64,000 bases of DNA from Alphaproteobacteria bacterium UBA1301. Lineage in GTDB: Bacteria; Pseudomonadota; Alphaproteobacteria; Micropepsales; Micropepsaceae. The notes beneath the pieces are model-generated. The model saw nothing but the letters and a program-made list of their open reading frames with translations, was not told the origin of the DNA and did not search any database. Of the stretch, positions 7,656 to 64,000 are shown piece by piece; positions within the stretch are counted from its first letter, which is position 1; each line of letters opens with the position of its first letter. The translations under genes were made by a program, and so were the position numbers. The DNA is taken from assembly GCA_002307725.1 (NCBI GenBank), contig DBUB01000007.1:136003-200002 (forward strand), read 5' to 3'.

Positions 7656-7717
7656 CAAGTCCCCTCCCTCAAAGCAGTATGGGAAGGTGCGCGTATCGGC
7701 GCCAATCCGCAAGACGC

Positions 7718-11990: not shown

Positions 11991-12509
11991 CTACGGCGCG
12001 CACCGTCCCGTGCCACGCGTATAGACCCGGCTGGCGTGAAACGCATCGCCGTCGTCGGTGCCGTCAGCGATTTCGGTCATCATAGCGCCGTCGTCGGTGA
12101 GTGTGCGCATCGCAGTGGCGTGTACCGTCCCTTTGGTCACCACCACATACCGCTGCGCGTCGATGCGCGTGAAAGCTGCCGTGCCGCCCGCCCCATCGGA
12201 ATGATCGCCGCCATCGAAGGCAAATACGCCATCCTGGCGCGTGAGATGTCCGTCCGCGTTCACGCGCATGCCGGTCAGCCGGAACTTGCCGCCCCCGAGA
12301 TCTTCCAGCGCCATCACCGCGCAGCGTTCACTGCCCGTGGACTGCGCTGCCTCCAGCGTGAAGCTGCCGAACACCGGGTCGGCCGCCGCAGCCGCCGTCG
12401 CCATCAGCACTGCCGCAAGGGCAACAGTGCTAAAGTTTCGACTCGATCGGCACGCCCGGCTGGTTTTTGGAACTGTGGATCGACAGGGCCGTCTTGACGC
12501 TCGCGACAT
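11991..12509 (-). CDS. small hypothetical (probably exported) protein; start codon unresolved
   Basis: The frame reads ...FSTVALAAVLMATAAAAADPVFGSFTLEAAQ...RVYTRGTG and looks protein-like. The opposite-strand ORF 11979..12497 is Arg-rich shadow. The only in-frame ATG (12509) would overlap the lrp 3' end by 80 nt, so the true start is uncertain. Confidence 0.4.
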   Translation of the reverse strand: MSRASRRPCRSTVPKTSRACRSSRNFSTVALAAVLMATAAAAADPVFGSFTLEAAQSTGSERCAVMALEDLGGGKFRLTGMRVNADGHLTRQDGVFAFDGGDHSDGAGGTAAFTRIDAQRYVVVTKGTVHATAMRTLTDDGAMMTEIADGTDDGDAFHASRVYTRGTGRCAP

Positions 12510-12909
12510 TTTTTTCCGCCGTCAGCACTTCCGTGATGAAGCTTTGGAAGCTGGACAAGTCCTTGGCCACGATCTTCAGGATGAAATCGACTTCCCCCGA
12601 CAGCATGTAGCACTCGCGTACATTCGGCCAGGAGCGAACATGCTCCTCGAATTGCTTGAGGTCGTGATCGTGCTGGCTGTCGAGGCCGACGAAGGCAAAC
12701 CCGGTGACCTCGAAGCCCAACGACTTGGGATCGAGATCGGCGTGATAACCTTGAATGTAACCGGCCTTTTCCAGCGCCCGCATGCGGCGGAGGCATGGCG
12801 GGGCGGTGATCTTGGCCCGGCGGGAGAGTTCGACATTGGTGATGCGACCGTCAGCCTGAAGTTCGGCCAGGATCTTGAGGTCGATGGAATCGAGCTTATG
12901 GTGCTCCAA
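12430..12909 (-). CDS. Lrp/AsnC family transcriptional regulator
   Basis: 159 aa. LDSIDLKILAELQADGRITNVELSRRAKITAPPCLRRMRALEKAGYI is the HTH, followed by an RAM/AsnC_trans_reg domain. Divergent from trxB, a common arrangement. Confidence 0.9.
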   Translation of the reverse strand: MEHHKLDSIDLKILAELQADGRITNVELSRRAKITAPPCLRRMRALEKAGYIQGYHADLDPKSLGFEVTGFAFVGLDSQHDHDLKQFEEHVRSWPNVRECYMLSGEVDFILKIVAKDLSSFQSFITEVLTAEKNVASVKTALSIHSSKNQPGVPIESKL

Positions 12910-13111
12910 GGGCTTCCCCGAAATATTCTGTCTCGGCGCATTTGTACTCCGGGAACCGGGTAATACGCAATAATATGTCGAGAAACGCCTCGCCGCAGGG
13001 TGAGGGCATTTTCGCCGTCAACCCTGCGCACTTGCCCCGGCTTGACCTTTTTCAGGGCAATCCCGATATCTGCCTTGGGATTGCCGGAACCTTGAGTCCG
13101 GCCTGCAATGA

Positions 13112-14065
<954 letters not shown>

Positions 14066-14076
14066 GCAGGTCGGGC

Positions 14077-14973
14077 ATGGATTGGGACAAGCTTCGCATC
14101 TTCCATGCGGTGGCGTCCGCCGGAAGTTTCACCCATGCCGGACAGATGCTGACTCTCAGCCAGTCGGCGGTCAGCCGCCAGATCAGCGCGCTTGAGGAAG
14201 AGATCAACACGCCGTTGTTTCAGCGCCACGCCCGTGGCCTGACGCTGACCGATGAAGGCGAGATGCTGTACGCCGCGGTCTCGGACGTGCTGGCGCGTCT
14301 GGCGCAAGCCGAAGAGGCGCTCAAAAACGTCCATGATGCGCCGCGCGGCTCGCTGAAAGTGACGTCCACCCATGGCATCGGCTCCTATTGGCTGATTCCA
14401 CGGCTCGGCAATCTCCTCAAGGAATGCCCAGAGCTGGAAGTGCATCTGATGCTGGAAGACCGCGAACTCGACTTGTCGCAGCGCGAAGCCGATGTCGCCA
14501 TCCGCATGCGGGCGCCGGTACAGGCCGATCTGATCCAGCGCAAGCTGTTCACCGTCCACTATCATGTTTACGCGGCGCAGGCATATCTCGACGTCCATGG
14601 CACGCCGCTGCGCTGCGAAGACCTCATCGACCACACCATCATTTCCTACGGCGAGACCGCGCCGGCCGAAGTGCGCGACATCAACTGGCTGGTCGAACAG
14701 TGCAAACGCACCGGACACAGCACCGGCAAGGGCCGCATCATCCGGATCAACAATGTGACGGGTGTGCTCAACGCTGCGCTGACTGGGCTAGGAATAGTTT
14801 CTATTCCCGATTACGTCGCCATCCGGTACCCCGAGCTCGTCCGCATTCTGCCCGATGTTCCGGGCCCGAGCTTCGATGTGCATTTGGTTTACGCGGATTC
14901 CTTGCGCCAATCCAAGCGGGTAGCGGCGTTCCGCGATTTTCTGGTCCACGAAGCCAAAGATTGGCATTACTGA
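14077..14973 (+). CDS. LysR family transcriptional regulator
   Basis: ORF 14014..14973 trimmed to MDWDKLRIFHAVASAGSFTHAGQMLTLSQSAVSRQISALEEE (LysR HTH), followed by a substrate-binding domain. Confidence 0.88.
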   Translation: MDWDKLRIFHAVASAGSFTHAGQMLTLSQSAVSRQISALEEEINTPLFQRHARGLTLTDEGEMLYAAVSDVLARLAQAEEALKNVHDAPRGSLKVTSTHGIGSYWLIPRLGNLLKECPELEVHLMLEDRELDLSQREADVAIRMRAPVQADLIQRKLFTVHYHVYAAQAYLDVHGTPLRCEDLIDHTIISYGETAPAEVRDINWLVEQCKRTGHSTGKGRIIRINNVTGVLNAALTGLGIVSIPDYVAIRYPELVRILPDVPGPSFDVHLVYADSLRQSKRVAAFRDFLVHEAKDWHY

Positions 14974-15140
14974 CGCTTCGAGACGGCTTGAAACCGCTCC
15001 AATCGCACCTATCTAGAGTGCACGGCGGTTCTTCCCCCCAAGGACTTGCCGGGTGGCGGTATCTCCCGCCGCGAGAGCTGGGCAGCCCCCCGCCGCCCAG
15101 CTCGGCTCGCGCCCCAACCGCGCGAGCGATCCCAAGCAGA

Positions 15141-15175
15141 ATTGCCGGAGCGCCCCCCGCTCCGGCAATTTTTTG
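15141..15175 (+). terminator. Rho-independent terminator (12-bp GC stem + T6), about 170 nt downstream of the LysR gene
   Basis: attgccggagcg-ccccc-cgctccggcaat followed by tttttt. Confidence 0.65.
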
Positions 15176-15272
15176 TATTAAGTGGGAGCCCTTTCGATTC
15201 GGTTGGTGAATTCGCGGGGGGCGATTTTGGTCTGGCGCGCATTTTCCAACTGCGCTTCGTGGGAGGTACCTG

Positions 15273-48292: not shown

Positions 48293-48791
48293 GCTCAAAG
48301 GCGAACATCGTGCCCCGGCTGTCAACACCCTGTCCGATACGCCTGCGGCAAAAAGCGTGCGCTTCGTTTCCGGGGGGCACCTTCAGCGACCTCAGGTGGT
48401 GTCGCGCCGATCTTTTCGCGTTCTACGCTGTGCCGGATGTTGTGCTGCGCGAGTCACAAAATTGCGGCGCCCGGCGACACGTCGCGGCAAGGATGCGGCG
48501 AGCGCATTTTTCCGGTGCACTTATATCGCGGATTTGACGTGCAGATTCGGTTCGCGATTACAGAACGCGAGATGCCGTGATGCAGCCCCATGCCGTGGCA
48601 GATTGAAATGGCAAATCGTTTTTGTTCCAGAACCGGAAGTGTCACGGATATTTCAAAAAACGGCTTTCGCCTTAACCATGTTCACGCGAAATCTTGCCTT
48701 AGTTCCGCCATCTCGCTTCCCAATCTCGCCAAAATTCGTTACCGTCAATTATAAACAAAATCCTAATGTCTCTTGGGCTTTGGTGGGGTGA

Positions 48792-49406
48792 ATGGACAAC
48801 GGGGTAGCTGGCGGCTCGAACCGCGGGTTTAAGACGTTTATCAGTGCGACCTTCATGCTGTCCCTGGTGGGCTGCGGCGGCTTAGGGCTTTTGCCGCACG
48901 AAACGAAGGTCTCGCAGAATTCCTTCCAGACATACGAGCAGGTGCAATCGGCGTACACGGACGTTGTTCCGGGCCAGACGCGCTTGACCGATCTGCCGAA
49001 GATGGGCTTCGACACGGCGACCACGCCGAATGTCGAGGTTCTGTCCTATCTCGGCGTGATCGAGCGCTTCATGCCGCGCTCGACGATGAGCTTCGATCAT
49101 CTCGCACCGCAAGTGCAGTCCTGCATCGAATCCCAGGACCGCTGCTCGGCCTTCGTCTTCCATCCGCAGCACGTTGAATCGCGGCGCATGGGCAACATCT
49201 TCCTCGATCTGCTCGGCTTTGAGCGCCAGACCGTCGACACCGGCTGGGCGGCCGAAGTGGTGTTGCTGATGCAGGACGGCCATGTTGCCTACAAGCTGAT
49301 GAGCGGGCGTCCGCGCATCGAGGACACGCGCGACCAGATTACGCCACTCGGTCCCTTGCAGGACATCGGCAACACTATGACGCGCACCGCATCGCGCTTC
49401 TTTTAG
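48792..49406 (+). CDS. hypothetical lipoprotein
   Basis: 204 aa with lipobox LVGC. No family recognised. Confidence 0.55.
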   Translation: MDNGVAGGSNRGFKTFISATFMLSLVGCGGLGLLPHETKVSQNSFQTYEQVQSAYTDVVPGQTRLTDLPKMGFDTATTPNVEVLSYLGVIERFMPRSTMSFDHLAPQVQSCIESQDRCSAFVFHPQHVESRRMGNIFLDLLGFERQTVDTGWAAEVVLLMQDGHVAYKLMSGRPRIEDTRDQITPLGPLQDIGNTMTRTASRFF

Positions 49407-52359: not shown

Positions 52360-54003
52360 GTGAACGAGGTTCGGATCAAATCGCGGCGTCTTGTCGCCAT
52401 CGCATGCTTGCTCGGCATACCTGCGGCCTTTGCCGACGATTCTGCGAGCACGCCGGCCGCTTTTGCCGACGATCCGGCCGCGCTGGTCGCGATTCCGGTC
52501 ACGCCGGTTGAGGTGCGCGAACTGCCCGCCGTCTCGGTCGATGGCTTGCCGAGCGTATCCTCGCTAAACCTCAGTTTGCCGACCTTGGTGGCGAAGGCTC
52601 CCGGCAAAAAAGGCAAAGCGTTCGCGCTCAAATTGTCCCCGCCTGCGGCCTCGACGAGTAACTCGCTCCTGCTTGCCGGTGGCCCGGTGGCGCTCGATCT
52701 CAAGGTTCCGGCCGCGAAAGACCTCTCCAGCGCCGCCTCGTTGAAGCTCAACCTGCCGGACGGCGCGGTGAAGGCGCAGGCCTCGGCCAGTGTCGGCAGA
52801 GAGGATGGCCAGACCGCCTTCTGGCACAAAGACGCCGCCAACCTCGAAGCGCAGATTTCCGGCCCGATGGGCACGGCCCTGAACGTTTCTGGGGAGAACA
52901 AATTATCGCTGACCTATCGCGCGCCAGAAAGCGTCGGCGCCGCGGATGGGCCGGCCCATGTCGTGCGCAGCGAGAGCCAGAGCGGGCAGGCCAGCATGAC
53001 GCTGCCGCTCGCGCCGTTCCAGGTGACGGTCGGCGGCAATTCGACCAGCGAGCACACCCAGGAAGGCGCGCCCGGCAACGCCGCCAGCTTCACCCAGTCC
53101 GCTGTCCGCACTGCCGATCACACTGCTTATGTTGATGTCGAATGGCAGCCGCTTGCGGGCGTGCAGCTCAAGGGCGGCACCGCGGCGCGGGTCGCCAACA
53201 TCAGTTGGCAGGATGCCCATTCGAGTTCCTACCGCTCGGTCAATCCGCACCTGACCGCAACCGTCACGCCGTTCCGCGATACGACCGTGACCGCCAAAGT
53301 CGAGCAGGTCGTGGCGCCGTTCGATGCTGCCGCTTTCGCCAATTACACCAAAGCCGACAGCGCGGCTAACGCCTCCGGCTTCCAGCCCGATCACGCCTGG
53401 CAGCTTCAGACCCGTGTCGAGCAGCGCGTCGGTCCCGCCAGCGTTTCGGCCACCTATACGAAGGCGCGCCAAGGCACCGTTACCGAGTTCGCCGAGGTTG
53501 AAGGTGTGCAGGCGCCCGCGACCACCCCGCTTTTGGGACGCGACAGCGTCGCGGTGGCGGTGAACCTGCCGCTTGCGGCAGTTGGTCTGCCGCACACGGA
53601 TTTGACCTCCGAGGCGACATGGCAGTCCTCGCGGGTGGTCGATCCGGTTACGTTTGAAACACGCGCCGCTTCGGGGGAGCCGGCGCAGAAGGTTTCGCTG
53701 CGTCTGGCACACAGCCTTCCGTCACACAATCTGAGCATCGGCGTTACCGGAGAATTCACCGGCGAGCGCACCTCCTATCAGGTGAAAGAGCTGTCGACGA
53801 CGGCGGCGAGCGGGTCGGTGGGGGCGTTTGTCTCCTACAAGCCCGGTGCTTACGAAGTCGATCTCAATGTGAGCGGCCTTTATGGGTCTTCGACGCGCGA
53901 CGACTTCTACCACGGCACCCGCGGTGCCTCACTGATCGACCGCTCCAGCGTGCAGGACAATTCCGGCCCGACGCTGAAGCTCGAGCTGAAAAGGCCGTTC
54001 TGA
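52360..54003 (+). CDS. hypothetical outer-membrane beta-barrel protein
   Basis: 547 aa with a GTG start. Signal peptide ...ACLLGIPAAFA, alternating beta-strand-like sequence, and C-terminal ...LKLELKRPF (terminal Phe). Confidence 0.6.
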   Translation: MNEVRIKSRRLVAIACLLGIPAAFADDSASTPAAFADDPAALVAIPVTPVEVRELPAVSVDGLPSVSSLNLSLPTLVAKAPGKKGKAFALKLSPPAASTSNSLLLAGGPVALDLKVPAAKDLSSAASLKLNLPDGAVKAQASASVGREDGQTAFWHKDAANLEAQISGPMGTALNVSGENKLSLTYRAPESVGAADGPAHVVRSESQSGQASMTLPLAPFQVTVGGNSTSEHTQEGAPGNAASFTQSAVRTADHTAYVDVEWQPLAGVQLKGGTAARVANISWQDAHSSSYRSVNPHLTATVTPFRDTTVTAKVEQVVAPFDAAAFANYTKADSAANASGFQPDHAWQLQTRVEQRVGPASVSATYTKARQGTVTEFAEVEGVQAPATTPLLGRDSVAVAVNLPLAAVGLPHTDLTSEATWQSSRVVDPVTFETRAASGEPAQKVSLRLAHSLPSHNLSIGVTGEFTGERTSYQVKELSTTAASGSVGAFVSYKPGAYEVDLNVSGLYGSSTRDDFYHGTRGASLIDRSSVQDNSGPTLKLELKRPF

Positions 54004-54038
54004 ACTACGGCACGAAGATATCTTGCACCTCCTGATGA

Positions 54039-54067
54039 CAAAAAAGGCCCCGGATCGCTCCGGGGCC
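54039..54067 (-). terminator. Rho-independent terminator of the 54086..55003 gene
   Basis: Minus strand: ggccccgga-gcga-tccggggcc followed by ttttttg. Confidence 0.75.
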
Positions 54068-54085
54068 TCGTCAGGAATCCCAGCC

Positions 54086-55003
54086 TTAGCGGCGGGCGAA
54101 GAGTTCGATCGTCACGCGATAACCGTTCACCGCATGGCAGCGCAGATAGACCTTGGACAGACTCCGATCCGAGCCCGGCAGGTCGTAGAAGTTCATCCGC
54201 CCGCGCTCCAACGTACGGCCATCGGCCAGCTTCACTTTGCGGCCGCCATCGAAGGTCGCGACGATACTGCCGCATTGCACGTCGTTTTCGAGCGGACGCA
54301 AGGCCAGCTTGTCGACATGGCGTCCGCCAAAGCCGGTAAAGTTGCTTTCCTTGTCATTGCGGCCTTCGAAGCTCATTGAGCCGAGCGAGACGAAATCGCC
54401 GCCAGGGCCACCCATCGGCCCATGACCCATGCCGGGGCCGCCACGACCGTCCATATCGCCGTGACCGCCCATCGGGCCAGGGCCCGCCATGGAGCCGGGA
54501 CCGCCCACCGGGCCGCGCGGGCCAGGGCCACTCATCGTGCCGGGAGCATCGGGACCGCGGCCGCCGCCGAGCAGGCCGGACCAAGTGCGATCCCAATCGC
54601 GATCGCGCCGCCATTCATCGCGGAAGTGACCGACCTCGGCTTCGATGAAGATGCGGCCGCCGCGGAATTCGTTGGAACGGCAAGCGAAGTTGATGCTGTC
54701 GACCTTGCGGGCGCGGCCCCTGAGATCGACTTCCACCGGCTGGCGCTCGTCGAGCCGGCCCGAGAAGACATTCTGGCGCTCGCCGTTTTCGTAACGCACC
54801 ACCACGGCGCGGCAGAAGATGTCGCTCCGGCTGGCCATCAGGCGCAGGTTTTCCAGCCGGCCGCCAAAGCGCGAATAGGCGGTATCGTTGTCGGCGCGAT
54901 AACCAACATCGACACTGCCCAGGCGCACGTAATCGGCTGCCGCCGGTGCTGCGAATACGGCAGCAAACACCGCCGCCCCAAGCAGCGTGTTCACAGTTTT
55001 CAT
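54086..55003 (-). CDS. secreted protein with an internally duplicated domain joined by a Gly/Pro/Met/His-rich linker
   Basis: 305 aa. Signal peptide MKTVNTLLGAAVFAAVFAAPAAA. The N-terminal domain (YVRLGSVDVGYRADND...INFACRS) and C-terminal domain (FVSLGSMSFEGRNDKE...VYLRCHA) are alignable. Linker: GPGPRGPVGGPGSMAGPGPMGGHGDMDGRGGPGMGHGPMGGPGG. Confidence 0.65.
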   Translation of the reverse strand: MKTVNTLLGAAVFAAVFAAPAAADYVRLGSVDVGYRADNDTAYSRFGGRLENLRLMASRSDIFCRAVVVRYENGERQNVFSGRLDERQPVEVDLRGRARKVDSINFACRSNEFRGGRIFIEAEVGHFRDEWRRDRDWDRTWSGLLGGGRGPDAPGTMSGPGPRGPVGGPGSMAGPGPMGGHGDMDGRGGPGMGHGPMGGPGGDFVSLGSMSFEGRNDKESNFTGFGGRHVDKLALRPLENDVQCGSIVATFDGGRKVKLADGRTLERGRMNFYDLPGSDRSLSKVYLRCHAVNGYRVTIELFARR

Positions 55004-55365
55004 AGGCTTCCCTCCAGGTTCACTTTTGCGAATGGCGGATCATGTAGCAGTCTGTCGCAATTTCGAGAAGTTTCATGACAACCGCAATCAATCATTATCT
55101 ATTTGCGTCTGCGTCGCAAGAGCATTTTCCTTCCGTTTTTCGCTGCTGCGACCGCTGTGGCGGCAGCGGGACAAATATGAACACAGCGTATACGGACGAA
55201 CGTTCTGAGAGCAGTAAACGTTGCCATGCGCGCGGGGCGCGAATTCGCCCGCACAAAATATAAGTGCCACCATCTTCTCATAGAGGTGAAACGTCGGGAG
55301 CTGTTCAGTTTTGGGAAACTGCGGCGGCCTTAGGTTGTGCTGCGGAATCTGCAGGACTTCTGGCT

Positions 55366-57102
55366 ATGTCGCGTCTCGGGTTGAAGTCGATTGCGAGCAA
55401 GGCGCTCGCCGTGGTGGTAGCTCTGATCGTCTTGAGTGTCGTCGCCACGACGGTGTTTCTCTTGAACCACTTCAGCACCGTGCTTGGAACCGAGCGACTG
55501 GCGCAAAACCTTTCGGCCGCCGAGATGATCGTCAACCCGGCTCACGCGGCGTTCAGCGTTGAAGACGGCAAGCTGAAACTCGGCGACCGCGTGCTCAACG
55601 GCGACACCAAGAGCGTCGATGCGGTGTCGAGCGCATTCGGTGGCGTGGCGACGATCTTCCTCGGCGATACGCGCATCGCAACCAATGTGAAGAAAGCCGA
55701 CGGCACCCGCGCGCTCGGCACCAAGCTCACCGCCGGACCGGTCTACGACGCGGTACTGAGCGGCGGCAAAGAGTATCTCGGCGCCGCCAAGATCCTCGGC
55801 GCGAATTATGTCACCGCCTACAAGCCGATCAAAGACGTGGCCGGTCAGACCGTCGGCATTCTGTTCGTCGGGTTCAAAGCGTCGGAGTTCAATCGCCAGT
55901 TCGCCAACGCCGTCGAAGCGGCGGTCATCGCCGGACTGGTGCTCGCGCTTCTTTGCGGCGGCATCGGCTGGTTCGTGTTCTCGCGTCTGTTCGCGCCGTT
56001 TCACCCCTTGTCGCATTTGATGGAGGAGGCGCGGGCAGGCCGCTACACCAAGGATGTACCCTATACCGACCGCTCCGACGAATTCGGCGAGCTGGCGCGG
56101 GTCATCGAGATGTTCAACCAATCGGTGGAGGAGCGCCGGGCCCAGCGCGCCGCTAATATCGAGCATGTGGTGTCGACCTTCGGCGAAGCGCTGGACGCGC
56201 TGGCGAAGCGCGATCTCTCCTATCGGCTGCGGAAAGATGTTCCCGCGGAGTACCGGCTCCTCAAGGAGAATTTCAATCGCGCTGCTGAACTGCTCGACGC
56301 TGCGATGGGCGACATCAATCAGCGGGCCGGCGATATCGCGGGCGCCTCAGGCGAGATTCACAGCGCTGCCCAACAAATGGCCCAACGCACCGAACGCGAA
56401 GCGGCCGCGATCGAACAGACGTCGGCGGCCGTTAACGAACTCAGCCAGGCGGTGACCCGCTCCGCCGCTGGCGCCAACCAGGCCAACAGCGCCGCCGCGA
56501 CCGCCAAAACCGACGCGAGCGCCGGCAGCGAGATTGCCAAGAATGCGGTGGAAGCGATCCGTGCCATCGCGCAGTCGTCCGGTGAGATCACCCAGATCAT
56601 CGGCGTCATTAACGAGATCGCATTCCAGACCAATCTGCTGGCCCTCAATGCCGGTGTGGAAGCGGCGCGCGCCGGTGACGCCGGTCGCGGTTTTGCTGTG
56701 GTGGCGAGCGAAGTGCGCTCGCTGGCGCAACGCTCCGGCGAGGCCGCCAAGCAGATTCGCCAGATCATCACCCGCAGCGAAGAGCAAGTCGAAACCGGCG
56801 TGAAGCTGGTGGAAGACAGCGGCGTCGCGTTCGGACGGATCGTCAGCGAGATCGGCGAGGTTTATGATCTCGTCACCAGCATTTCAGCGGCGCAGAACGA
56901 GCAGGCCACCGCACTGAAGGAGATCGACAGCGCTATTCAGCAGATGGACCAAACGACCCAGCAGAATGCCGCGATGGCCGAAGAAAGCTGCGCCGCTAGT
57001 GACGGCATGGCCAGCCACGCCCGCGAGCTGGAAAGCGGTGTCGCGCAATTTGACGTGACGGGAACGCAGGAAAGGCCCACGCGCCTGTCCCACGCCGCCT
57101 GA
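55366..57102 (+). CDS. methyl-accepting chemotaxis protein (periplasmic Cache-like sensor, HAMP, MCP signalling domain)
   Basis: ORF 55264..57102 trimmed to MSRLGLKSIASKAL (TM1). The periplasmic region contains the TIFLGDTRIATNV...YVTAYKPI Cache-type motif. HAMP, then the highly conserved EIAFQTNLLALNAGVEAARAGDAGRGFAVVASEVRSLAQRS. Confidence 0.9.
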   Translation: MSRLGLKSIASKALAVVVALIVLSVVATTVFLLNHFSTVLGTERLAQNLSAAEMIVNPAHAAFSVEDGKLKLGDRVLNGDTKSVDAVSSAFGGVATIFLGDTRIATNVKKADGTRALGTKLTAGPVYDAVLSGGKEYLGAAKILGANYVTAYKPIKDVAGQTVGILFVGFKASEFNRQFANAVEAAVIAGLVLALLCGGIGWFVFSRLFAPFHPLSHLMEEARAGRYTKDVPYTDRSDEFGELARVIEMFNQSVEERRAQRAANIEHVVSTFGEALDALAKRDLSYRLRKDVPAEYRLLKENFNRAAELLDAAMGDINQRAGDIAGASGEIHSAAQQMAQRTEREAAAIEQTSAAVNELSQAVTRSAAGANQANSAAATAKTDASAGSEIAKNAVEAIRAIAQSSGEITQIIGVINEIAFQTNLLALNAGVEAARAGDAGRGFAVVASEVRSLAQRSGEAAKQIRQIITRSEEQVETGVKLVEDSGVAFGRIVSEIGEVYDLVTSISAAQNEQATALKEIDSAIQQMDQTTQQNAAMAEESCAASDGMASHARELESGVAQFDVTGTQERPTRLSHAA

Positions 57103-57173
57103 TTTTTCCGTGGCCAAATTCCGGCGGGCGCGATACACCGCCCCGGCTGTCTTTGCTGCTGGAGAGCGTGGTT

Positions 57174-57932
57174 ATGTCCGCCAAATATTCGCGTATTGCT
57201 ATCGTTACGGGTGCCACCTCGGGCATCGGCGAGGCGACCGTCCGCCGCTTTGCCGCGGAGGGAATCGCGGTCGTCGGCAATGGGCGCACGGCCGAAAAGC
57301 TCGTCAGCCTGGAGAATGACCTTTGGCCGTTGTTCCGCGGCGTGGCGGGCGATGCGGCCAAGCCGGAGGTGATCGAGGAGATGTTTACCAGCGCCGAAGC
57401 GGCGTTTGGCCCTGCCGACATCGTGGTGGCCAACGCGGGGCGCGGCCTCGGCGGCTCGGTTGCGACCGGCGACACCACCCGGATGGCCGAGATTTTTGAG
57501 CTCAATGTGTTGGGCGCGCTCGGTTTGATGCGGGCGGCGGCGACCCGCATGGTGCCGCGGCAGGAAAAGGGCTTTCCCAAGAGCGCGCAAGACATCGTCG
57601 TGCTCGGTTCCGTGGTCGGCCGTAATATCTCGCCGTTCAGCGGGCTTTACGGTGCCACCAAGCATGCGGTGCATTCGCTGGTCGAGGCGCTGCGGCGCGA
57701 AATCGGACCCAAGGGTGTGCGGGTGACGCTGGTAGAGCCGGGCTTCGTGCTCTCCGGCTTCCAGGATGGCGCCGGCTACTCGACCGAGATGGTCGATGGC
57801 TTCAAGACGCGGCTGGGGCCATTGCTTATCGGCGCCGACATCGCCGATGCGATCCATTACGTCATCAGCCGCCCGCCGCATGTCCATGTCGGCGATATCG
57901 TGATCCGTCCGACCCGGCAGGATTACCCCTGA
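57174..57932 (+). CDS. SDR family oxidoreductase
   Basis: ORF trimmed to MSAKYSRIAIVTGATSGIGEA (TGxxxGxG). The catalytic YGATK region is present. Confidence 0.85.
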   Translation: MSAKYSRIAIVTGATSGIGEATVRRFAAEGIAVVGNGRTAEKLVSLENDLWPLFRGVAGDAAKPEVIEEMFTSAEAAFGPADIVVANAGRGLGGSVATGDTTRMAEIFELNVLGALGLMRAAATRMVPRQEKGFPKSAQDIVVLGSVVGRNISPFSGLYGATKHAVHSLVEALRREIGPKGVRVTLVEPGFVLSGFQDGAGYSTEMVDGFKTRLGPLLIGADIADAIHYVISRPPHVHVGDIVIRPTRQDYP

Positions 57933-58014
57933 CGGCACCGCGGCGGCGGGTGCTTGGCTCAGGGGCAGGAATAGCCTATCAACCCGCCCCTGAAATCCCG
58001 AAGGGGCCCGTTTT

Positions 58015-58278
58015 ATGACCGATCTGCCCGATCACCTTAGCGCCAATCCCAAAAGCCCGTTTTACAACGAGGCGCTGCTCGAAGCGGGCGTCGGCATCAA
58101 GTTCAACGGCGCTGAGAAGACCAACGTCGAAGAGTATTGCGTCAGCGAAGGCTGGATCCGGGTCGTCGCCGGCAAAAGCGTCGACCGCCATGGCAACCCG
58201 ATGACGATCAAACTGAAGGGGACCGTCGAGCCCTACCACAAACCACCGCCGGGCGCCGACCAACCGCCGACCGAATAA
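58015..58278 (+). CDS. DUF3297 family protein
   Basis: 87 aa. PDHLSANPKSPFYNEALLEAGVGIKFNG...EYCVSEGWIRV is typical of DUF3297. Confidence 0.75.
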   Translation: MTDLPDHLSANPKSPFYNEALLEAGVGIKFNGAEKTNVEEYCVSEGWIRVVAGKSVDRHGNPMTIKLKGTVEPYHKPPPGADQPPTE

Positions 58279-58739
58279 CGCGTCCCTTTAAATACGCAAA
58301 AAGGCGGTTCCGTCTTCCGGCGCCGCCTCTTTCAAAAGCCTTGGCGCACGGCACGCTCCTTCGAGCGCAACGACGGCACCGCCGCTTCCTCCCTCGGCTA
58401 CCTGGGCGATGGCATACGGCGAACCGGCCGAGCGCCTCGGCCCATAATCCTGTCCATCATCCCACGGATGCGCGCGCGGCATCCTTCACCGATATGACGT
58501 TGCGCACATAATTCACTTCTCGGCCGCGGCCCCCAATGCGTTGGGGAATCGCGCGTCTTTGCTTGGGCAGCACTCCATCAACAACACGGGATCGAGATGG
58601 GATGCAGCGCTTACGATTTCAAGAGGGTGCGACAATCGCTACGCTATTAAGGGCGAGGTGCAATCGCAAGTGTTGTTCATGTACATGAACAGAATTGGTA
58701 AAGGGTGGCGCGGGGAAGACGATGGGCGCGCCCGTTAGC

Positions 58740-59021
58740 TCACACCACCGCGGCGTCGCGGAGCAATCCTGCGTCGGCCATTTCGGCATACAGGGCGTTC
58801 GGCGCGAGGTCGTAGCCGTTCGGCCAAGTGGGGGCGCCGAATTCGATGAAGACACGGGCGAAATAGGCGGGATCGCAGAGCGGTTCGAGCATTGGCCCGC
58901 CCGCAGCGACGATGTCGGCGAAATCACGCTCGCCGAAACGGCCGTCCGAAAAGCTGAGGCGCAACCGATGGCCGCCCTCGGCTTCGACTTTTGTCACTTT
59001 GATCAGCGTCAGTTCAGTCAT
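58740..59021 (-). CDS. DUF2442 domain-containing protein
   Basis: 93 aa. VTKVEAEGGHRLRLSFSDGRFGERDF...WPNGYDLAPNALY matches DUF2442. Overlaps the upstream DUF4160 gene by 8 nt. Confidence 0.75.
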   Translation of the reverse strand: MTELTLIKVTKVEAEGGHRLRLSFSDGRFGERDFADIVAAGGPMLEPLCDPAYFARVFIEFGAPTWPNGYDLAPNALYAEMADAGLLRDAAVV

Positions 59022-59280
59022 CCTGCAAACCCGGGATGCGTTCGAGGGGTAGGCTCATTTGTGAGCGCGTCCAATTTTCCCGCAACTCCGGCCGACGCGC
59101 AAGCACCCATTCCTTGACCAGCCGCGTGGCGATTTTTGGCAAGTGCCCGGCCAGAATTTCCCCGGTTTCGATAGCGACGAACGCTTCGTGCTCGCCGTAG
59201 ACGGCGTGGAAATGCGGCGGCGCGTGGTCGCGAAAATACATCCGGATCACGATGCCATAGAAGAACGAGATCGTCGGCAT
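59014..59280 (-). CDS. DUF4160 domain-containing protein
   Basis: 88 aa. MPTISFFYGIVIRMYFRDHAPPHFHAVYGEHEA is the DUF4160 signature. Confidence 0.8.
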   Translation of the reverse strand: MPTISFFYGIVIRMYFRDHAPPHFHAVYGEHEAFVAIETGEILAGHLPKIATRLVKEWVLARRPELRENWTRSQMSLPLERIPGLQDD

Positions 59281-59337
59281 GACTGGCCCCGCAATGGCCC
59301 TACGATAACGGCGATGGATGGTAAACGAAAGGGTGGC

Positions 59338-59631
59338 TTACTTCTTTGCCCGCCGCTGCTTCAGCAGTTCCCGCCCGCGCTTCATGATTTCTTCGGCGTC
59401 AAACGGTTCCGTCCGTCCCGCGGCGATGTCGTCTAGCCCCTTCTGAAGGTCCGCCCGCAGCGCAGCCAACTCCTGCATTTGCACCGCGCGCTTCATCTTC
59501 CAATCGCGCAGCGCTTCGCGGATCACTTCGCTCGACGAGGCATAATTGCCCTCATCGACAGCCTCCCGCACGGAGGCCGCCATCTCGGCGGGCAGGGTAA
59601 TGGTCAAGCGTTCGATCTCAGACATGATCAT
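59338..59631 (-). CDS. ParD-family (RHH) antitoxin-like protein, no ParE partner
   Basis: 97 aa. ERLTITLPAEMAASVREAVDEGNYASSSEVIREALRDW (RHH), then a helical tail. The next gene on the same strand, 57 nt downstream, is DUF4160, not a ParE. Confidence 0.8.
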   Translation of the reverse strand: MIMSEIERLTITLPAEMAASVREAVDEGNYASSSEVIREALRDWKMKRAVQMQELAALRADLQKGLDDIAAGRTEPFDAEEIMKRGRELLKQRRAKK

Positions 59632-59644
59632 ACTATATCATACT
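59627..59644. promoter_or_regulatory. tandem direct repeat ATCATACT-N2-ATCATACT at the parD-like start (candidate operator / -10-like TATGAT on the minus strand)
   Basis: Two exact 8-mers with 10-bp periodicity that overlap or adjoin the start codon. Confidence 0.4.
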
Positions 59645-59768
59645 TGGTAGCAGCAGGCAATTTCGAATTCGGTCCGGTTCGGCGCCTCCCTTTCTGCCCC
59701 CGCTTGCGGGGGAAGTGGCCGGTGGCGCGCAGCGGCGCCGGACGAAAGGGGGCTGCGTTGCACTCGCT

Positions 59769-59792
59769 GGTAAGACGTCTTACATTCTTACC
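59769..59792. promoter_or_regulatory. palindromic operator-like site GGTAAGACGTCTTAC-N3-CTTACC upstream of mazE
   Basis: Perfect 14-bp palindrome GTAAGACGTCTTAC (59770-59783) plus a third CTTACC half-site, 20-45 nt upstream of the mazE-like ATG. Confidence 0.5.
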
Positions 59793-59812
59793 GTCGCACT
59801 GCGAGGCCGACC

Positions 59813-60034
59813 ATGACTGCGCCGTTGTCGAAGATCACCTCGAAGTCGCAAACCGTCATCCCCAAGGCGGTGCGCGAGAAGCTGGGGCTGAAGCCCGGCG
59901 ATCTCTTGCGCTATGTGTTCGACGGCAAGCGCGTGGTGATCGAAAAGGCGCGCACGGAGGCGGAAGACGATCCGTTTGCCACCTTCGGCGAATGGGCGGG
60001 CAAGGCCGACGAAAAAGCCTATCGTGGCCTTTGA
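59813..60034 (+). CDS. mazE: AbrB/MazE/SpoVT-family antitoxin
   Basis: 73 aa. SKSQTVIPKAVREKLGLKPGDLLRYVFDGKRVVIEK is the swapped-hairpin AbrB fold, with an acidic tail. Confidence 0.8.
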   Translation: MTAPLSKITSKSQTVIPKAVREKLGLKPGDLLRYVFDGKRVVIEKARTEAEDDPFATFGEWAGKADEKAYRGL

Positions 60035-60035
60035 C

Positions 60036-60374
60036 ATGGACTACGCATCCTTCGACATCGTCGTCGTGCCATTTCCTTATGCCGACCGTCTGGCGGAAAA
60101 GCGCCGCCCGGCTTTGGTGGTCAGCGCACCCGCGCTGCAAAAAAGCTACGGGCTGGTCTGGCTGATGATGATCACCAGCGCCGACAATCCCGCCTGGGAT
60201 GGCGACGTCGCGATTTCCGATTTGAAGCTGGCGGGACTTCCTGCGCCCTCCGTCGTCCGCCCCGCCAAGATCGCCACCGTCGATGCCACCCGCATCCTGC
60301 GCCGGATCGGCAAACTGGCGGCAAAGGATGCGAGGCGGGTGAAGGACTTTTTGCGCGGGTCGCTGGCGGGGTAG
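60036..60374 (+). CDS. mazF: PemK/MazF-family toxin
   Basis: ORF 59976..60374 trimmed to MDYASFDIVVVPFPYADRLAEKRRPALVVS...SVVRPAKIATVD (MazF/PemK core). The ATG is 1 nt after the mazE stop. Confidence 0.8.
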   Translation: MDYASFDIVVVPFPYADRLAEKRRPALVVSAPALQKSYGLVWLMMITSADNPAWDGDVAISDLKLAGLPAPSVVRPAKIATVDATRILRRIGKLAAKDARRVKDFLRGSLAG

Positions 60375-60414
60375 GAATGTCGCGGAGAAAGTCCAGCCGT
60401 AGGCCGGAACGGGG

Positions 60415-60598
60415 CTCACTTCTTTGCCCGCCGCTGCTTCAGCAGTTCTCGTCCGCGCTTCATGACCTTTTCGACGTCAAACGGCGCCGTCCGCCCCGCA
60501 GCGATGTCGTCCAGCCCCGTCTGAAGGTCCGCCCTGATCTGGTCGATGCGCGCAGCGTACGATGCTCTTGTGTTCCATCGTTTTTCCCCCCCATTTCT
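60415..60598 (-). pseudogene. 5'-truncated second copy of the ParD-family gene (C-terminal ~55 codons only)
   Basis: Frame reads (stop)RNGGEKRWNTRASYAARIDQIRADLQTGLDDIAAGRTAPFDVEKVMKRGRELLKQRRAKK(stop). Compare the intact copy: DWKMKRAVQMQELAALRADLQKGLDDIAAGRTEPFDAEEIMKRGRELLKQRRAKK. There is no start codon or RHH domain. About 89 % nt identity to 59338-59460 by eye. Confidence 0.75.
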
Positions 60599-60605
60599 CT
60601 AGCGC

Positions 60606-62402
60606 CTATTTTTCTACCAATGAGAGCACGTACTTTGTCAATTCAGCGAAATGATCCGGATCGTTCTCTAGAATCCATTCTGTTAGTGCTCTGCCGTGCC
60701 TGATTTTTCCATAATCTGTTTGAATTAGATTGCTAAACAATGATGTCAGAAGGCGAGGTGCATCGACTGTCCGCCACCACTCGCCAGTGCGGTAAGCCCC
60801 CATCCACTTTTCTGAACCGGAAAAAGTTTCGGCGTTTTTATCCAGCCAATCAATAATCAGAGCTTCTGAAGTTTCACCAAGCCCCAAGGACTTTGCCTCA
60901 GAACATATAATCGCGGTGAGGGCGTGCGGATGCACTAGAAAACATTCGTAACATCGCGCCGGTAGAAATTTAACGGTCCCCTTTGTTTCTGTTTCGACGC
61001 TGGCAATGTAGGCTTCTGATCTCTTCTCTCGATCGAATGAAAAGTGAAGCGAGTTTGGCAAAATCGCATTGGCGTCGGTCAGCTTTTTGTAAATATCTAG
61101 AACAACTTCGTCGGTTCCGGCTTTTCTGACGATTTCGTCAACACTTCTGACCGCTACGAAATCAACATCCGCCTTTACCGTTCCTCTTTCTCTTTGCAGG
61201 ATAAGTGGAAAGCACTTCTCCTCGGTCGGGCCTTCGACCCAGACGATGCGTTCCATCCCAAACACATCGGCCGCGGACACGCCAATTTCAGCAAGCACGC
61301 GGCGCTGACTCGAGATCGTTTTTCTTTCAAGCTTCTCAACGACGCTCTCACCTTCCACTAGGCGAACAATAAAAACAGCATCGGGATCCGCCGCAGCGAT
61401 GATTTCGGGAGAATGGGTAGACAGAAGATACTGGTGCTTATACTGCGCCAATATCTCAATCAATTTCTTCGCCGCGCCCGGGTGCAGGAAGGAGTTTGGT
61501 TCATCAATAGCAATGACGCCTCTATCAGTTGTCATGGCGACATAGAGAATGGCTAACGCTTGGCCAACGCCGGTGCCACTTTCCGCTAGTGGAATCCGCA
61601 AGTCTTCGCGTTTTGTTGCGGTATCGACCGGCCAAAGCTGGATTCCAACTTGGTTTCCTTGCCCGACGACTGCCACATATTTGATGTATGGAAAAATCTC
61701 ATTCACATGGCGAACGTATTGCGCATAAAGCTCAGGATTTCCTATTAGTGAAAATAGGACGAGTGGGAGGTTTGCTGCATTGTTTTCAAGGATGTGTTGT
61801 TCGGTGAAGTTAAGTCGACTGATGTTGAATCTCTCAGCTTTGAACGCATAGACCTTATCCGGCAGCAGATATGTCACAAGTTGCCACGCGGTATCCTGCT
61901 CACCATTGGCTAGGCCGCTAGCGCTGTATGATCTGTTGTTGTCGCTGAGCGTTATTTGCGTGAAATTTTTTTGTCTAGCCGGAAGTTCGAACATGGCGTG
62001 GGAAGGGTATTGCAGAGATTGGACTCCGTTGGCATAGAATCGAAGCCTAAATGTTGGTTTGCCGGTTTCAAAAAAACTCTTAGCAAATTCCTGCGCTTGG
62101 ACGCCCGGTTGAACGGGAAGTTGAAGAGACGCCCTTTGCCGTGAGAGCGCTCCAAATAGCTCGCCTTTTGATGGTACAAACTCAAAATCAAATTGACTAT
62201 TTGGCGGCGATGCTTCGCCTCGGTGTTGGCGGATGTTCCGGTGCGGAAGATTCGGCGTATTGTTGAAACGGAAGGCCTCCAGGAGTGCAGTTTTCCCGGA
62301 GCTGTTCTTGCCGACTAAGACGTTGAATCCGTCGTTGAGTTCGATCCAGCCGGAATCGGAAAAGCTTTTGTAGTTTTGGATTCGCAGCTTGGTGATGCGC
62401 AT
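60606..62402 (-). CDS. ABC-type (OLD/RecF-like, AAA_15/AAA_21-type) ATPase fused to a C-terminal Toprim/DUF4435-like domain; candidate anti-phage defence nuclease
   Basis: 598 aa in clearly AT-richer DNA. MRITKLRIQNYKSF, Walker A GKNSSGKT (aa 31-38), SGTG (275-278), Walker B VIAIDEPNSFLHP (296-308), LSTHSP (327-332). C-terminal IVWVEGPTEE (386-395), FSFDRE (454-459), LPARCYECFL (480-489). Confidence 0.7.
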   Translation of the reverse strand: MRITKLRIQNYKSFSDSGWIELNDGFNVLVGKNSSGKTALLEAFRFNNTPNLPHRNIRQHRGEASPPNSQFDFEFVPSKGELFGALSRQRASLQLPVQPGVQAQEFAKSFFETGKPTFRLRFYANGVQSLQYPSHAMFELPARQKNFTQITLSDNNRSYSASGLANGEQDTAWQLVTYLLPDKVYAFKAERFNISRLNFTEQHILENNAANLPLVLFSLIGNPELYAQYVRHVNEIFPYIKYVAVVGQGNQVGIQLWPVDTATKREDLRIPLAESGTGVGQALAILYVAMTTDRGVIAIDEPNSFLHPGAAKKLIEILAQYKHQYLLSTHSPEIIAAADPDAVFIVRLVEGESVVEKLERKTISSQRRVLAEIGVSAADVFGMERIVWVEGPTEEKCFPLILQRERGTVKADVDFVAVRSVDEIVRKAGTDEVVLDIYKKLTDANAILPNSLHFSFDREKRSEAYIASVETETKGTVKFLPARCYECFLVHPHALTAIICSEAKSLGLGETSEALIIDWLDKNAETFSGSEKWMGAYRTGEWWRTVDAPRLLTSLFSNLIQTDYGKIRHGRALTEWILENDPDHFAELTKYVLSLVEK

Positions 62403-62458
62403 CAGTTGGCCTCGGTCCTGAGTCTCAACATGCTACGGTATCGCGTTTGCATTGGAAC

Positions 62459-62487
62459 AAAAAAGCCCCGGCGTTTCCACCGGGGCT
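62459..62487 (-). terminator. Rho-independent terminator of groEL
   Basis: Minus strand: agccccgg-tggaaacg-ccggggct followed by ttttttg. Confidence 0.75.
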
Positions 62488-62518
62488 TTCCGTATTTGAC
62501 TTTGGTGCGATCTTGAAA

Positions 62519-62582
62519 ACCGCCCCCCACCCGGAGCGGCTTGCGCCGCTCCGACCTCCCCGCGAGGGGGAGGTTGTTGGGG
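62519..62582. repeat. GC-rich double-hairpin intergenic element
   Basis: ccccccacccggagcggcttgcgccgctccgacctccccgcgagggggaggt, with hairpins ggagcggc-ttgc-gccgctcc and cctcccc-gcga-gggggagg. A related CCCCCGC-NN-GCGGGGG hairpin lies at 59695-59720. Confidence 0.5.
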
Positions 62583-62583
62583 A

Positions 62584-64000
62584 TCAATAATCCATATCGC
62601 CCATGCCGCCCATGCCGCCGCCGGGCATTGCCGGGGCTGCTTCTTTCTTCGGACGGTCGGCGATCATGGCTTCGGTGGTGACCAGCAGCGCGGCCACCGA
62701 GGCAGCGTTCTGGATCGCGATGCGCACGACCTTGGTCGGGTCAACGATGCCGGCTTCGATCAGATCGACATACTGTTCGGTCTGCGCGTTGTAGCCGTAG
62801 TTGGCGTTTTTCTGGTCGAGCAGCTTGCCGACGACGATGGAGGCTTCCACGCCAGCGTTCTCGACGATCTGGCGGATCGGCGACTGGATCGCCTTGCGCA
62901 CGATCGCGATGCCGACGTTCTGGTCGTCGTTCTCACCAACGAGGGCGGCGAGCGCCTTGGTGGTGTAGAGCAGGGCCGCACCGCCGCCGGGGACGATACC
63001 TTCTTCCACGGCTGCCTTGGTGGCATTGAGCGCGTCGTCAACGCGATCCTTTTTCTCTTTCACTTCCACTTCGGTGGCGCCGCCGACGCGGATGACGGCC
63101 ACGCCGCCCGCCAGCTTGGCCAGACGTTCCTGCAGCTTCTCTTTGTCGTAATCGGAAGTGGTCTCTTCGATCTGCTGCTTGATCTGAGCAACGCGGGCCT
63201 GGATGTCTTTCTTCTGGCCGGCGCCGTCGATGATCGTGGTGTCGTCCTTGGTGATCTTCACGCGCTTGGCAGTGCCGAGCATGGTCAGCTTGACGTTCTC
63301 AAGCTTGATGCCGAGGTCTTCGCTGATGACCTGGCCACCGGTGACGATGGCGATGTCTTCCAGCATGGCCTTGCGGCGATCGCCGAAGCCCGGCGCCTTG
63401 ACGGCCGCAACCTTGAGGCCGCCGCGCAGCTTGTTGACCACCAAGGTGGCCAGGGCTTCGCCTTCGACTTCTTCGGCAATGATGAGGAGCGGACGGCCCG
63501 ACTGCACGATCGATTCCAGGATCGGCAGCAGGTCCTTCAGCGTGCTCAGCTTCTTCTCGTGGATGAGGATGTAGGGTTCCTCAAGCTCGGCCACCATCTT
63601 CTCGGCGTTGGTGACGAAATAGGGGCTGATATAGCCGCGGTCGAACTGCATGCCTTCGACGACTTCCAGCTCGGTGTCCTGGCTCTTGGCTTCTTCAACC
63701 GTGATGACGCCTTCGTTGCCGACCTTGGCCATCGCTTCGGCGATCATCTTGCCGACGGCAACGTCGCCATTGGCCGAAATGGTGCCGACCTGGGCGATTT
63801 CGTCGTTCGACTTGATCTTCTTGGAGCGCTTCTTGAGGTCCGTGACGACCGCTTCCACGGCCTTCTCGATACCGCGCTTCAGATCCATCGGGTTCATGCC
63901 GGCGGCGACCGACTTGGCGCCTTCGCGCACGATCGAGCGGGCCAGAACCGTGGCCGTGGTGGTGCCGTCGCCGGCCGCGTCATTGGTCTTGGAAGCCACT
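62584..64000 (-). CDS. groEL: chaperonin GroEL, C-terminal ~470 aa (5' end beyond the window)
   Basis: ...[34 protein letters not shown]...[43 protein letters not shown]...[11 protein letters not shown]. The leading M in the track is an artefact of an internal GTG. Confidence 0.95.

Follow-up and report, generated by a model that had tools for sequence, protein, structure and literature searches.

The window examined here is a stretch of 64,000 nucleotides from Alphaproteobacteria bacterium UBA1301 (assembly GCA_002307725.1, contig DBUB01000007.1, positions 136,003 to 200,002 of the forward strand). The subject is an OLD-like ATPase-Toprim gene on its reverse strand, which has groEL and toxin-antitoxin (TA) genes as neighbours, with a parD remnant and PemK/MazE downstream. 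An earlier note, made from the sequence alone, had read this gene as a recently acquired single-gene insertion encoding an OLD-type ABC ATPase fused to a Toprim or DUF4435 domain, either a class 1 OLD nuclease or a fused form of PARIS. The 598-residue open reading frame (ORF) and all the motifs that it quoted were found where it had placed them: GKNSSGKT at residues 31-38 (nt 62289-62312), SGTGVGQ at 275-281, VIAIDEPNSFLHP at 296-308, STHSP at 328-332, WVEGPTE at 388-394, FSFDRE at 454-459 and FLPARCYECFL at 479-489. The gene and the elements of its product, with the basis of each assignment, are the following.

60606..62402, reverse strand: OLD-like ATPase-Toprim gene, 598 aa, ATG start, TAG stop (ORF list)
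61308..62402, reverse strand: ABC ATPase domain, residues 1-365 (Pfam AAA_15/AAA_21, conserved residues, hhalign to P2 Old)
62289-62312, reverse strand: Walker A, G31-T38 (conserved residues)
61830-61844, reverse strand: Q-loop-like R191 (conserved residue)
61560-61580, reverse strand: signature-like SGTGVGQ (sequence motif)
61479-61517, reverse strand: Walker B and D-loop, D300/E301/H307 (conserved residues)
61407-61421, reverse strand: H-loop, H330 (conserved residue)
60933..61265, reverse strand: predicted Toprim core, residues 380-490, a four-stranded beta-alpha unit (secondary structure of the predicted model, Foldseek)
61221-61241, reverse strand: E390-G-P-T-E394 (aligns to GajA and P2 Old)
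61026-61034, reverse strand: D457-R-E459 (conservation, position in the predicted fold)
60945-60947, reverse strand: E486 in C-Y-E-C-F-L (conservation)
60609..60932, reverse strand: predicted C-terminal helical domain, residues 491-598 (helices 492-597 in the AlphaFold models)
60705-60707, reverse strand: K566 within a Y-x-K-T-x-H-S motif (invariant in 45/45)

Relatives of the protein were sought among 5.8 billion proteins, which yielded 893 sequences, and residue conservation was read from an alignment of 45 homologues. The ATPase half is the better anchored part of the protein. Pfam recognises residues 1-365 as AAA_15 (81.3 bits, E = 1.4e-22) and AAA_21 (65.1 bits, E = 1.4e-17), both above their cut-offs, and K37, R191, D300, E301, H307 and H330 are invariant in 45/45 homologues, so that the Walker A lysine, Walker B acid, D-loop histidine and H-loop histidine by which an OLD-family ATPase is recognised are all in place. 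When the family profile was aligned with phage P2 Old using hhalign, the match extended over 399 columns with a probability of 97.2 % (E = 4.5e-11), which bears out the OLD-type ATPase of the earlier note. This alignment pairs K37, D299, H306, E398 and E402 of P2 Old with K37, D300, H307, E390 and E394 of the present protein, and mutation of any of these P2 Old residues abolishes activity in vivo (PMC7049728). An arginine at the Q-loop position and a histidine at the D-loop position, here R191 and H307, are described traits of class 1 OLD proteins (PMC7049728). Against the sequences of the PDB, the family profile retrieved the retron Eco8 OLD, the Thermus OLD and GajA with E-values of 4.6e-11 to 1e-9, and AriA more weakly (2.9e-7). 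Amongst the PADLOC models, HEC-01A was matched from end to end, residues 2-364 of the protein aligning with positions 5-341 of the 363 in the model (E = 2.1e-23). A fold search with the whole protein, whose full-length AlphaFold model has a predicted local distance difference test score (pLDDT) of 87.8, returned mostly Rad50/SMC heads, together with full-length alignments to the retron Eco8 OLD, GajA and the Thermus OLD.

The C-terminal half, of about 230 residues, was assigned mainly through its predicted structure. Modelled alone with AlphaFold (pLDDT 86.3, predicted TM-score 0.85), it forms a beta-alpha unit followed by a helical bundle. The best Foldseek matches of this model are 6njx, 6nk8 and 6njv, the C-terminal regions of the Xanthomonas and Burkholderia class 2 OLD proteins (E = 1.3e-3 to 9e-3, probability 1.00, TM-scores of 0.46-0.56 across the whole domain). 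Next come chains of AriB, 8ux9_A in fourth place (E = 4.1e-3) and 8v46_D in seventh (E = 2.7e-2); the Thermus OLD and the retron Eco8 follow after the class 2 OLD proteins and AriB, and the Foldseek probability falls steeply beyond. A search of the same model against a viral structure library gave weak, generic Toprim/DnaG matches, none of them at E of 1e-3 or lower. An OLD-type Toprim domain is thus recognised by structure, while by sequence only the first beta-alpha-beta unit aligns: GajA's IEGPSEK aligns to VEGPTEE, so E390 and E394 match those of GajA, and the profile of the C-terminal half aligned to the corresponding half of P2 Old with hhalign over that first unit only, at 6 % probability. 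Of the two domains named by the earlier note for this region, the OLD-type Toprim stands, by the Foldseek matches and by weak matches of the Pfam model OLD-like_TOPRIM to 30 of 33 family members (best 1.8e-4); DUF4435 does not, being matched by 1 of the 33 with an E-value of 0.059. The present protein has no DUF4435 match even at E-values up to 10, and neither the AriB nor the HEC-01B model of PADLOC matches its C-terminal domain. The NCBIfam equivalogs MADS3, retron_eff_Eco8 (57 bits against a cut-off of 250) and PtuA are all far under their cut-offs.

The putative active site is conserved to a degree that contrasts with the overall divergence of the family. E390, E394, D457, E486 and K566 are invariant in 45/45 homologues at 35-52 % overall identity, and residue 459 is Glu in 44/45 and Asp in 1/45. 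In the class 2 OLD of Burkholderia (Bp OLD), metal A is held by E400/D455/D457 and metal B by E404/T506/E508, with K562 contributed by the helical domain (PMC7049728). In the class 1 OLD of Thermus scotoductus (Ts OLD), the corresponding residues are E377/D431/D433 and D381/S478/E480; R487 lies seven residues past E480, and the protein is without a helical domain (PMC7049728). For metal A, E390 aligns to E398 of P2 Old and to the catalytic Glu of GajA, and the place of D457-x-E459 can be deduced from the predicted fold. For metal B, the S/T position is Thr in 18/45, Met in 12/45, Cys in 8/45 (including this protein) and Ala in 6/45, and position 493, seven residues past E486, is Glu or Asp in 25/45 and Lys in 4/45. 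The earlier note had taken the D-R-E sequence for a change of the DxD motif in this particular gene and had wondered whether the nuclease was still active. As D-x-E is found in 44/45 homologues and the other acidic ligands are invariant, D-R-E is, as far as the alignment tells, a conservative, family-wide D-x-E form of the DxD motif, and the putative two-metal site around it looks otherwise complete and under strong constraint. The conserved D-x-E, together with the invariant remaining acidic ligands and lysine, therefore points to an active rather than a dead nuclease. The catalytic layout appears class 2-like, with a lysine that would come from the helical domain in the predicted spatial arrangement, despite the stand-alone gene.

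In composition the gene stands apart from its surroundings, as had been claimed. Its GC content is 0.487, compared with a window mean of 0.619 (standard deviation 0.023, n = 33 non-overlapping windows of the same size), which corresponds to a z-score of −5.7, and it is the global GC minimum of the 64 kb; GC at third codon positions (GC3) is 0.504, against 0.74-0.84 across nine flanking genes. The low-GC segment spans positions ~60550 to ~62455. Two other short patches of lowered GC are present in the window, at ~9800-10300 and ~48500-49100 (0.52-0.53 in 500-nt windows). The arrangement at the locus is not an assembly artefact, since two contigs of unrelated sequencing runs (L099 and L100; SRR5325149, SRR404117) agree with the window at 100 % identity, one over 60419-63363 and one over 60419-62459, and reproduce both gene junctions; both break at 60419, within the parD repeat described below. 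The occurrence of an identical stretch in two unrelated public runs indicates that the same strain recurs in several datasets.

Taken together, we read the gene as a stand-alone OLD-family nuclease, composed of an ABC ATPase, a Toprim and a helical domain and belonging to a large, uncharacterised and divergent clade, with a probability of roughly 0.7. The architecture, the conservation, the homology to P2 Old and GajA, the structural match to OLD and AriB, the foreign composition and the patchy presence are all observed. By analogy with the characterised OLD proteins of P2, T. scotoductus and Vibrio cholerae and with GajA, the ABC head would bind and hydrolyse ATP, drive dimerisation or oligomerisation and act as a sensor or regulator. 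The Toprim site would cut nucleic acid by two-metal catalysis, with metal A held by E390, D457 and E459 and metal B by E394 and E486, and K566 would reach in from the helical domain to stabilise the transition state. The target would most probably be DNA, which would be nicked or degraded; tRNA stays a possible substrate because the C-terminal domain is structurally near AriB. The biological role would most probably be anti-phage defence, which we infer from the family membership, the foreign composition and the patchy distribution next to TA modules.

The surroundings of the gene are defined by three further features.

62461..62490, reverse strand: groEL intrinsic terminator, a 13-bp G+C-rich hairpin followed by a T-run (−26.7 kcal/mol, z = −3.98)
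62403..62460, reverse strand: leader from terminator to ATG, 58 nt (ATG ~52 nt downstream of the hairpin and its T-run; GAGG, Shine-Dalgarno-like, at 62410-62413)
60416..60534, reverse strand: truncated second parD copy, the C-terminal ~40 codons and TGA (122-nt direct repeat, translation)

The groEL terminator hairpin forms the upstream boundary of the low-GC segment, and the start of the gene indeed lies directly behind it (62461-62490), as the earlier note had it. At the other end, the parD remnant sits just past the downstream boundary. The second, truncated copy of parD proposed in that note is also real, as 60413-60534 repeats 59335-59456 directly over 122 nt at 89 % identity; the distance to the gene is larger than the ~10 nt given there, since homology to parD can be followed as far as 60534 (~60560 at most), which leaves 46-72 nt to the stop codon of the gene. 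The full-length parD (59338-59631, reverse strand) is followed on the same strand by DUF4160 (59014-59280) and DUF2442 (58740-59021), and in R. electricum a ParE occupies the position of this pair (L001, about 13660-13960). It would seem that the parD antitoxin has acquired a new partner, or that DUF4160/DUF2442 has taken the place of the toxin. The gene was correctly described as single, with no helicase or HNH partner adjacent and no retron either: no reverse transcriptase (RT) ORF was found within 6 kb, nor a retron non-coding RNA (ncRNA). A scan for sigma-70-like promoters over 60300-62700 gave 0 sites, and neither a tRNA integration site nor an RNA partner was found at the locus. The only match in an Rfam scan of 54000-64000 was a sub-threshold one, to the Leu operon leader at 62459-62608 on the reverse strand (25.9 bits against 50, E = 0.063); it falls where groEL terminates, and the hairpin there has most likely produced it by chance.

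R. electricum is the closest genome compared, with a DUF3297 protein 93 % identical to that of the window, which marks the host as a relative of Rhizomicrobium, and a GroEL likewise 93 % identical. It keeps the order MCP-SDR-DUF3297 ... ParE-ParD-groEL, and the gene is absent at the syntenic site. This absence and the foreign composition both agree with the horizontal acquisition proposed in the earlier note. The comparison of the DUF3297-groEL interval which that note had suggested gives a divided picture: the gene is absent from it in R. electricum and in five more relatives (L008, L013, L017, L026 and L054), and it is found behind the same terminator in L081 and L095. When the DUF3297 neighbour was looked up by its exact protein sequence, nothing but the source contig came back, so the empty-site comparison rests on more distant genomes. 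In the gene-less relatives the interval is between ~0.85 kb and 5.4 kb long, and its cargo is unrelated. In L017, another low-GC gene (13725-15254, forward strand, 509 aa, GC3 0.49) lies beside the groEL terminator and convergent with groEL. Neither Pfam nor PADLOC matches it, and it may be cargo or a defence gene at the same hotspot. The interval of L013, a Rhizomicrobium metagenome-assembled genome, contains a CI/LexA-like repressor (12276-13262, reverse strand, HTH_3 and Peptidase_S24), which suggests prophage-derived cargo at the same variable interval.

Amongst the closest homologues, P0004 (50 % identical, L095) is located directly behind groES-groEL, co-oriented and with no TA genes, while P0002 (52 % identical, L081) lies behind groEL with mazEF in between; P0003, the fourth member of the subclade, is at an unrelated site. 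L081 and L095 share a downstream TonB_C gene. The mazEF of L081 is flanked by direct repeats of ~140 nt (5257-5393 and 6016-6161, 85-89 % identical), which carry a duplicated groEL terminator hairpin and an internal palindromic element. Since the flanking repeats include the duplicated terminator, mazEF must have been inserted between groEL and the gene; the repeat pair resembles a target duplication or a repeat-mediated insertion. The same terminator hairpin follows groEL in loci with and without the gene (L017, L081, L095), and the possibility that it belongs to a mobile cassette was ruled out, as it also follows groEL where the gene is absent. These loci also argue against the picture of a cassette dropped into a TA islet: the L081 and L095 homologues are behind the groEL terminator as well, one of them without TA genes and the other with an inserted mazEF. 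Possibly it was the TA modules that gathered around the gene, and not the gene that entered a TA islet. A role of mazEF as functional partner was likewise ruled out. It is adjacent to the gene in the window and in L081, and a MazE-Fic pair adjoins a cyanobacterial homologue; it is absent beside the homologues at L083, L085, L095, L096 and L097, and its GC is host-like, unlike that of the gene.

The family is large (~2,100 clusters at 50 % identity). The closest of the 893 relatives is 52 % identical, and nearly all are ~600 aa long and without a Pfam call on the last ~230 residues. An apparent two-gene form was rejected, as the "stand-alone" C-terminal proteins of ~245-275 aa are directly preceded by ATPase fragments and are thus split or truncated genes. 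The genomic context is known for seven homologue loci (L081/L082, L083, L085, L095, L096, L097 and the contig carrying P0006), at none of which a UvrD/PcrA-like helicase, an RT, an ncRNA or a separate Toprim gene was found; no partner gene is conserved in the window or at L081, L083, L085, L095, L096 and L097. Homologues sit in low-GC troughs at five further loci, that is at every locus examined in a GC-rich host. The family is scattered over unrelated loci in Bradyrhizobium and others. Relatives were also found on seven predicted viral contigs (IMG/VR, L088-L094; full-length, mostly 30-35 % identity) and on one Rhizobium plasmid; sequenced phages gave no full-length relative. On four of the six long viral contigs the gene is at most ~8 kb from a contig end, which would fit a gene at the edge of a prophage, or a prophage call that takes in host DNA. 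In Bradyrhizobium symbiodeficiens (L083, 8135-8782, reverse strand), the low-GC island of the homologue also holds ORFs of 84 and 126 aa with no Pfam match, and on the predicted viral contig L089 a 270-aa ORF (6892-7704, reverse strand) is within the island. None of these ORFs is conserved among the loci compared; they could be accessory genes specific to their lineages. The distribution is best read as that of an accessory gene which moves horizontally and which, in Rhizomicrobium-like bacteria, recurs just 3' of the groEL terminator in the orientation of groEL. The three groEL-linked copies may go back to one old gain followed by many losses, or to repeated exchange anchored on the conserved groEL flank.

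This distribution could also be given a different meaning, namely that of a long-resident, vertically inherited gene of the Rhizomicrobium lineage with a cellular role in repair or maintenance, like RecF, Rad50 or SbcC, perhaps cotranscribed with groESL and not recently acquired for defence. Of the four closest homologues whose context is known, three are directly behind the groEL terminator and co-oriented with groEL, L081 and L095 share the TonB_C gene downstream, no promoter of its own was recognised, and the ATPase head resembles Rad50 and SMC. The pairwise identities of the gene (50-56 %) are far below those of GroEL (87-88 %), MazE (77 %), DUF3297 (71 %), TonB_C (68 %) and PemK (66 %), but rank in the same way as those of GroEL. 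Such a history would, however, not be expected to leave a GC3 of 0.50 in hosts with a GC3 near 0.8, and it has to contend with the absence of the gene from the syntenic interval in R. electricum and the five other relatives, the unrelated site of P0003, and the scattering of the family over Bradyrhizobium and other loci, predicted prophages and a plasmid. As the closest characterised relatives are also all defence nucleases, we hold this explanation to be quite unlikely. Another proposal starts from the active site: the Toprim domain could be catalytically dead through the change from DxD to D-R-E, leaving an ATP-driven sensor or scaffold, or a partner of MazEF/ParD. The canonical second Asp is indeed replaced, the metal-B S/T position is a Cys, the N-Y usual after E486 is C-F here, and mazEF or MazE-Fic adjoins the gene at the three loci already named. 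Glu is nevertheless a competent metal ligand and is kept at position 459 in 44/45 homologues, and the invariance of the other acidic ligands and of the lysine at 35-52 % identity is that of a maintained active site; with mazEF missing from five of the homologue loci and host-like in GC, this proposal is highly improbable.

The alternative that the earlier note had itself put forward is a fused PARIS system (class 4 OLD). In this case the ATPase would detect a phage protein, whereupon the Toprim domain would be released or activated and cut tRNA in the anticodon loop, which would lead to translation arrest. Fused forms of PARIS exist, AriB is likewise a Toprim core with extra helices and provides the fourth and seventh structural matches of the C-terminal model, and the AriA models of PADLOC match the ATPase half at 3.3e-23. 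The best AriA stretch covers residues 1-46 only, however, and when PDB sequences were searched with the family profile, AriA came behind OLD, GajA and the retron OLD, which places the ATPase nearer to these than to AriA. AriB of PARIS is operationally defined by a DUF4435 (PF14491) match of at least 27 bits (PMC9122126). In the present protein no such match accompanies AAA_15/AAA_21, and PADLOC gives no AriB match; amongst its relatives, OLD-like_TOPRIM is matched in 30/33 and DUF4435 in 1/33 (E = 0.059). As the homology to P2 Old also extends through the first Toprim beta-alpha-beta unit, a fused PARIS appears unlikely.

The stand-alone OLD-family nuclease is thus the explanation we retain, with several points that weigh against it. 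The C-terminal domain stays below the threshold of every curated model (13.4 bits for OLD-like_TOPRIM, where 23.2 are required), the only PADLOC match to this domain is Old with an E-value of 0.019, and its profile finds no meaningful match amongst PDB sequences (best E = 1.8). The Foldseek E-values, obtained with a predicted model, are ~1e-3 and the TM-scores ~0.5. D-x-E takes the place of the canonical DxD, the S/T ligand of metal B varies across the family, and the placement of K566 in the active site is deduced from the predicted fold. Of the four nearest homologues with context, three occupy the groEL site with identities congruent with those of GroEL, which would fit a long vertical residence. 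The structurally related two-gene HEC-01 was unprotective in its only published test.

OLD anti-phage nucleases are already known; what is new here is a clade of them that is large, divergent and poorly annotated, and in which a single gene combines a D-x-E site with a class 2-like catalytic module. Only a handful of class 1 OLD nucleases have been studied, and single-gene (class 1) OLD is reported to be rare, in 0.45 % of genomes by DefenseFinder (PMC12392090). The family carries what looks like the whole OLD catalytic apparatus; as its nuclease half is unseen by curated domain models, it is probably under-counted in genome surveys. It mixes features which otherwise separate the classes, namely a single gene, a class 2/AriB-like lysine in the helical domain and D-x-E, and this mix offers a natural test of which features determine whether an ABC-Toprim defence protein acts on DNA or tRNA and how it is regulated. 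The recurrent groEL-terminator site and the persistently low GC are handles on the movement and silencing of the gene. A bolder suggestion, to which we give only a small chance, is that the clade represents an unrecognised fifth OLD lineage, in which a class 1-like single gene carries a class 2/AriB-like Toprim-helical module built on a D-x-E site, unseen by the current Pfam, NCBIfam and PADLOC models. In Rhizomicrobium-like bacteria, its fixed, co-oriented position 50-60 nt behind the groEL terminator without a recognisable promoter might then mean that it is expressed by heat-shock read-through from groESL, which would tie a defence nuclease to the proteotoxic stress of phage infection.

The OLD classes described in the literature are single genes (class 1), genes with a UvrD-like helicase (class 2, Gabija), retron-associated genes (class 3) and PARIS (class 4), in which AriA and AriB are separate or, in some cases, fused. 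With class 1 (P2 Old, T. scotoductus, Vibrio cholerae), the present gene shares its form as a single isolated gene of ~600 aa encoding an ABC ATPase followed by a Toprim domain, the one-to-one alignment of the five catalytic residues of P2 Old, and the Q-loop Arg and D-loop His; its gene organisation is that of class 1, isolated and with no helicase, RT or separate Toprim gene. It differs from this class in that the sequence similarity to P2 Old stops after the second Toprim strand and that the metal site is D-x-E instead of DxD. Its C-terminus is not of the Ts OLD type either: the Arg/Lys seven residues past the metal-B Glu is missing, the position being mostly Asp/Glu, and a helical domain, which Ts OLD does not have, is predicted at 491-598 with high confidence. 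Ts OLD also has a dimerisation domain inserted in the ATPase fold, whereas the segment from Q-loop to signature is short here, with two helices and a hairpin in the predicted secondary structure.

The class 2 OLD/GajA proteins (OLD of Burkholderia pseudomallei, Bp, and of Xanthomonas campestris, Xc; GajA of Bacillus cereus) provide the best structural matches of the C-terminal domain, with which they share a Toprim core and a helical domain. K562 of Bp OLD is in the helical domain, and K566 is invariant in the same kind of domain here, where it would be spatially equivalent; the catalytic spacing is also similar (400/404/455/457/508/562 in Bp OLD, 390/394/457/459/486/566 here). The difference from class 2 is that no helicase is found beside the gene in the window or at the seven homologue loci, and that the C-terminal region shows no profile-detectable sequence similarity to that of class 2. 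Class 3 differs by its adjacent RT and retron ncRNA, neither of which is present. PARIS resembles the gene in its pairing of an ABC ATPase and a Toprim effector with additional helices, AriB being amongst the top structural matches, and in its known one-polypeptide fused forms; it differs by the DUF4435 and PADLOC AriB matches, which are missing, and by an ATPase to which OLD/GajA is nearer than AriA. The HEC-01A model matches the ATPase half end to end, but HEC-01 consists of two genes (an ATPase and a separate TOPRIM) whereas the Toprim domain is fused here; it gave no protection in the only published assay. HEC-04 is a validated single-protein ATPase-TOPRIM defence system in which the ATPase and nuclease residues are both essential, and no HEC-04 model is found among the best 25 of the 148 PADLOC families matching the whole protein. 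We file the protein under the OLD family in the broad sense; it is class 1 by its gene organisation, does not have the C-terminal traits of Ts OLD and fits no curated equivalog.

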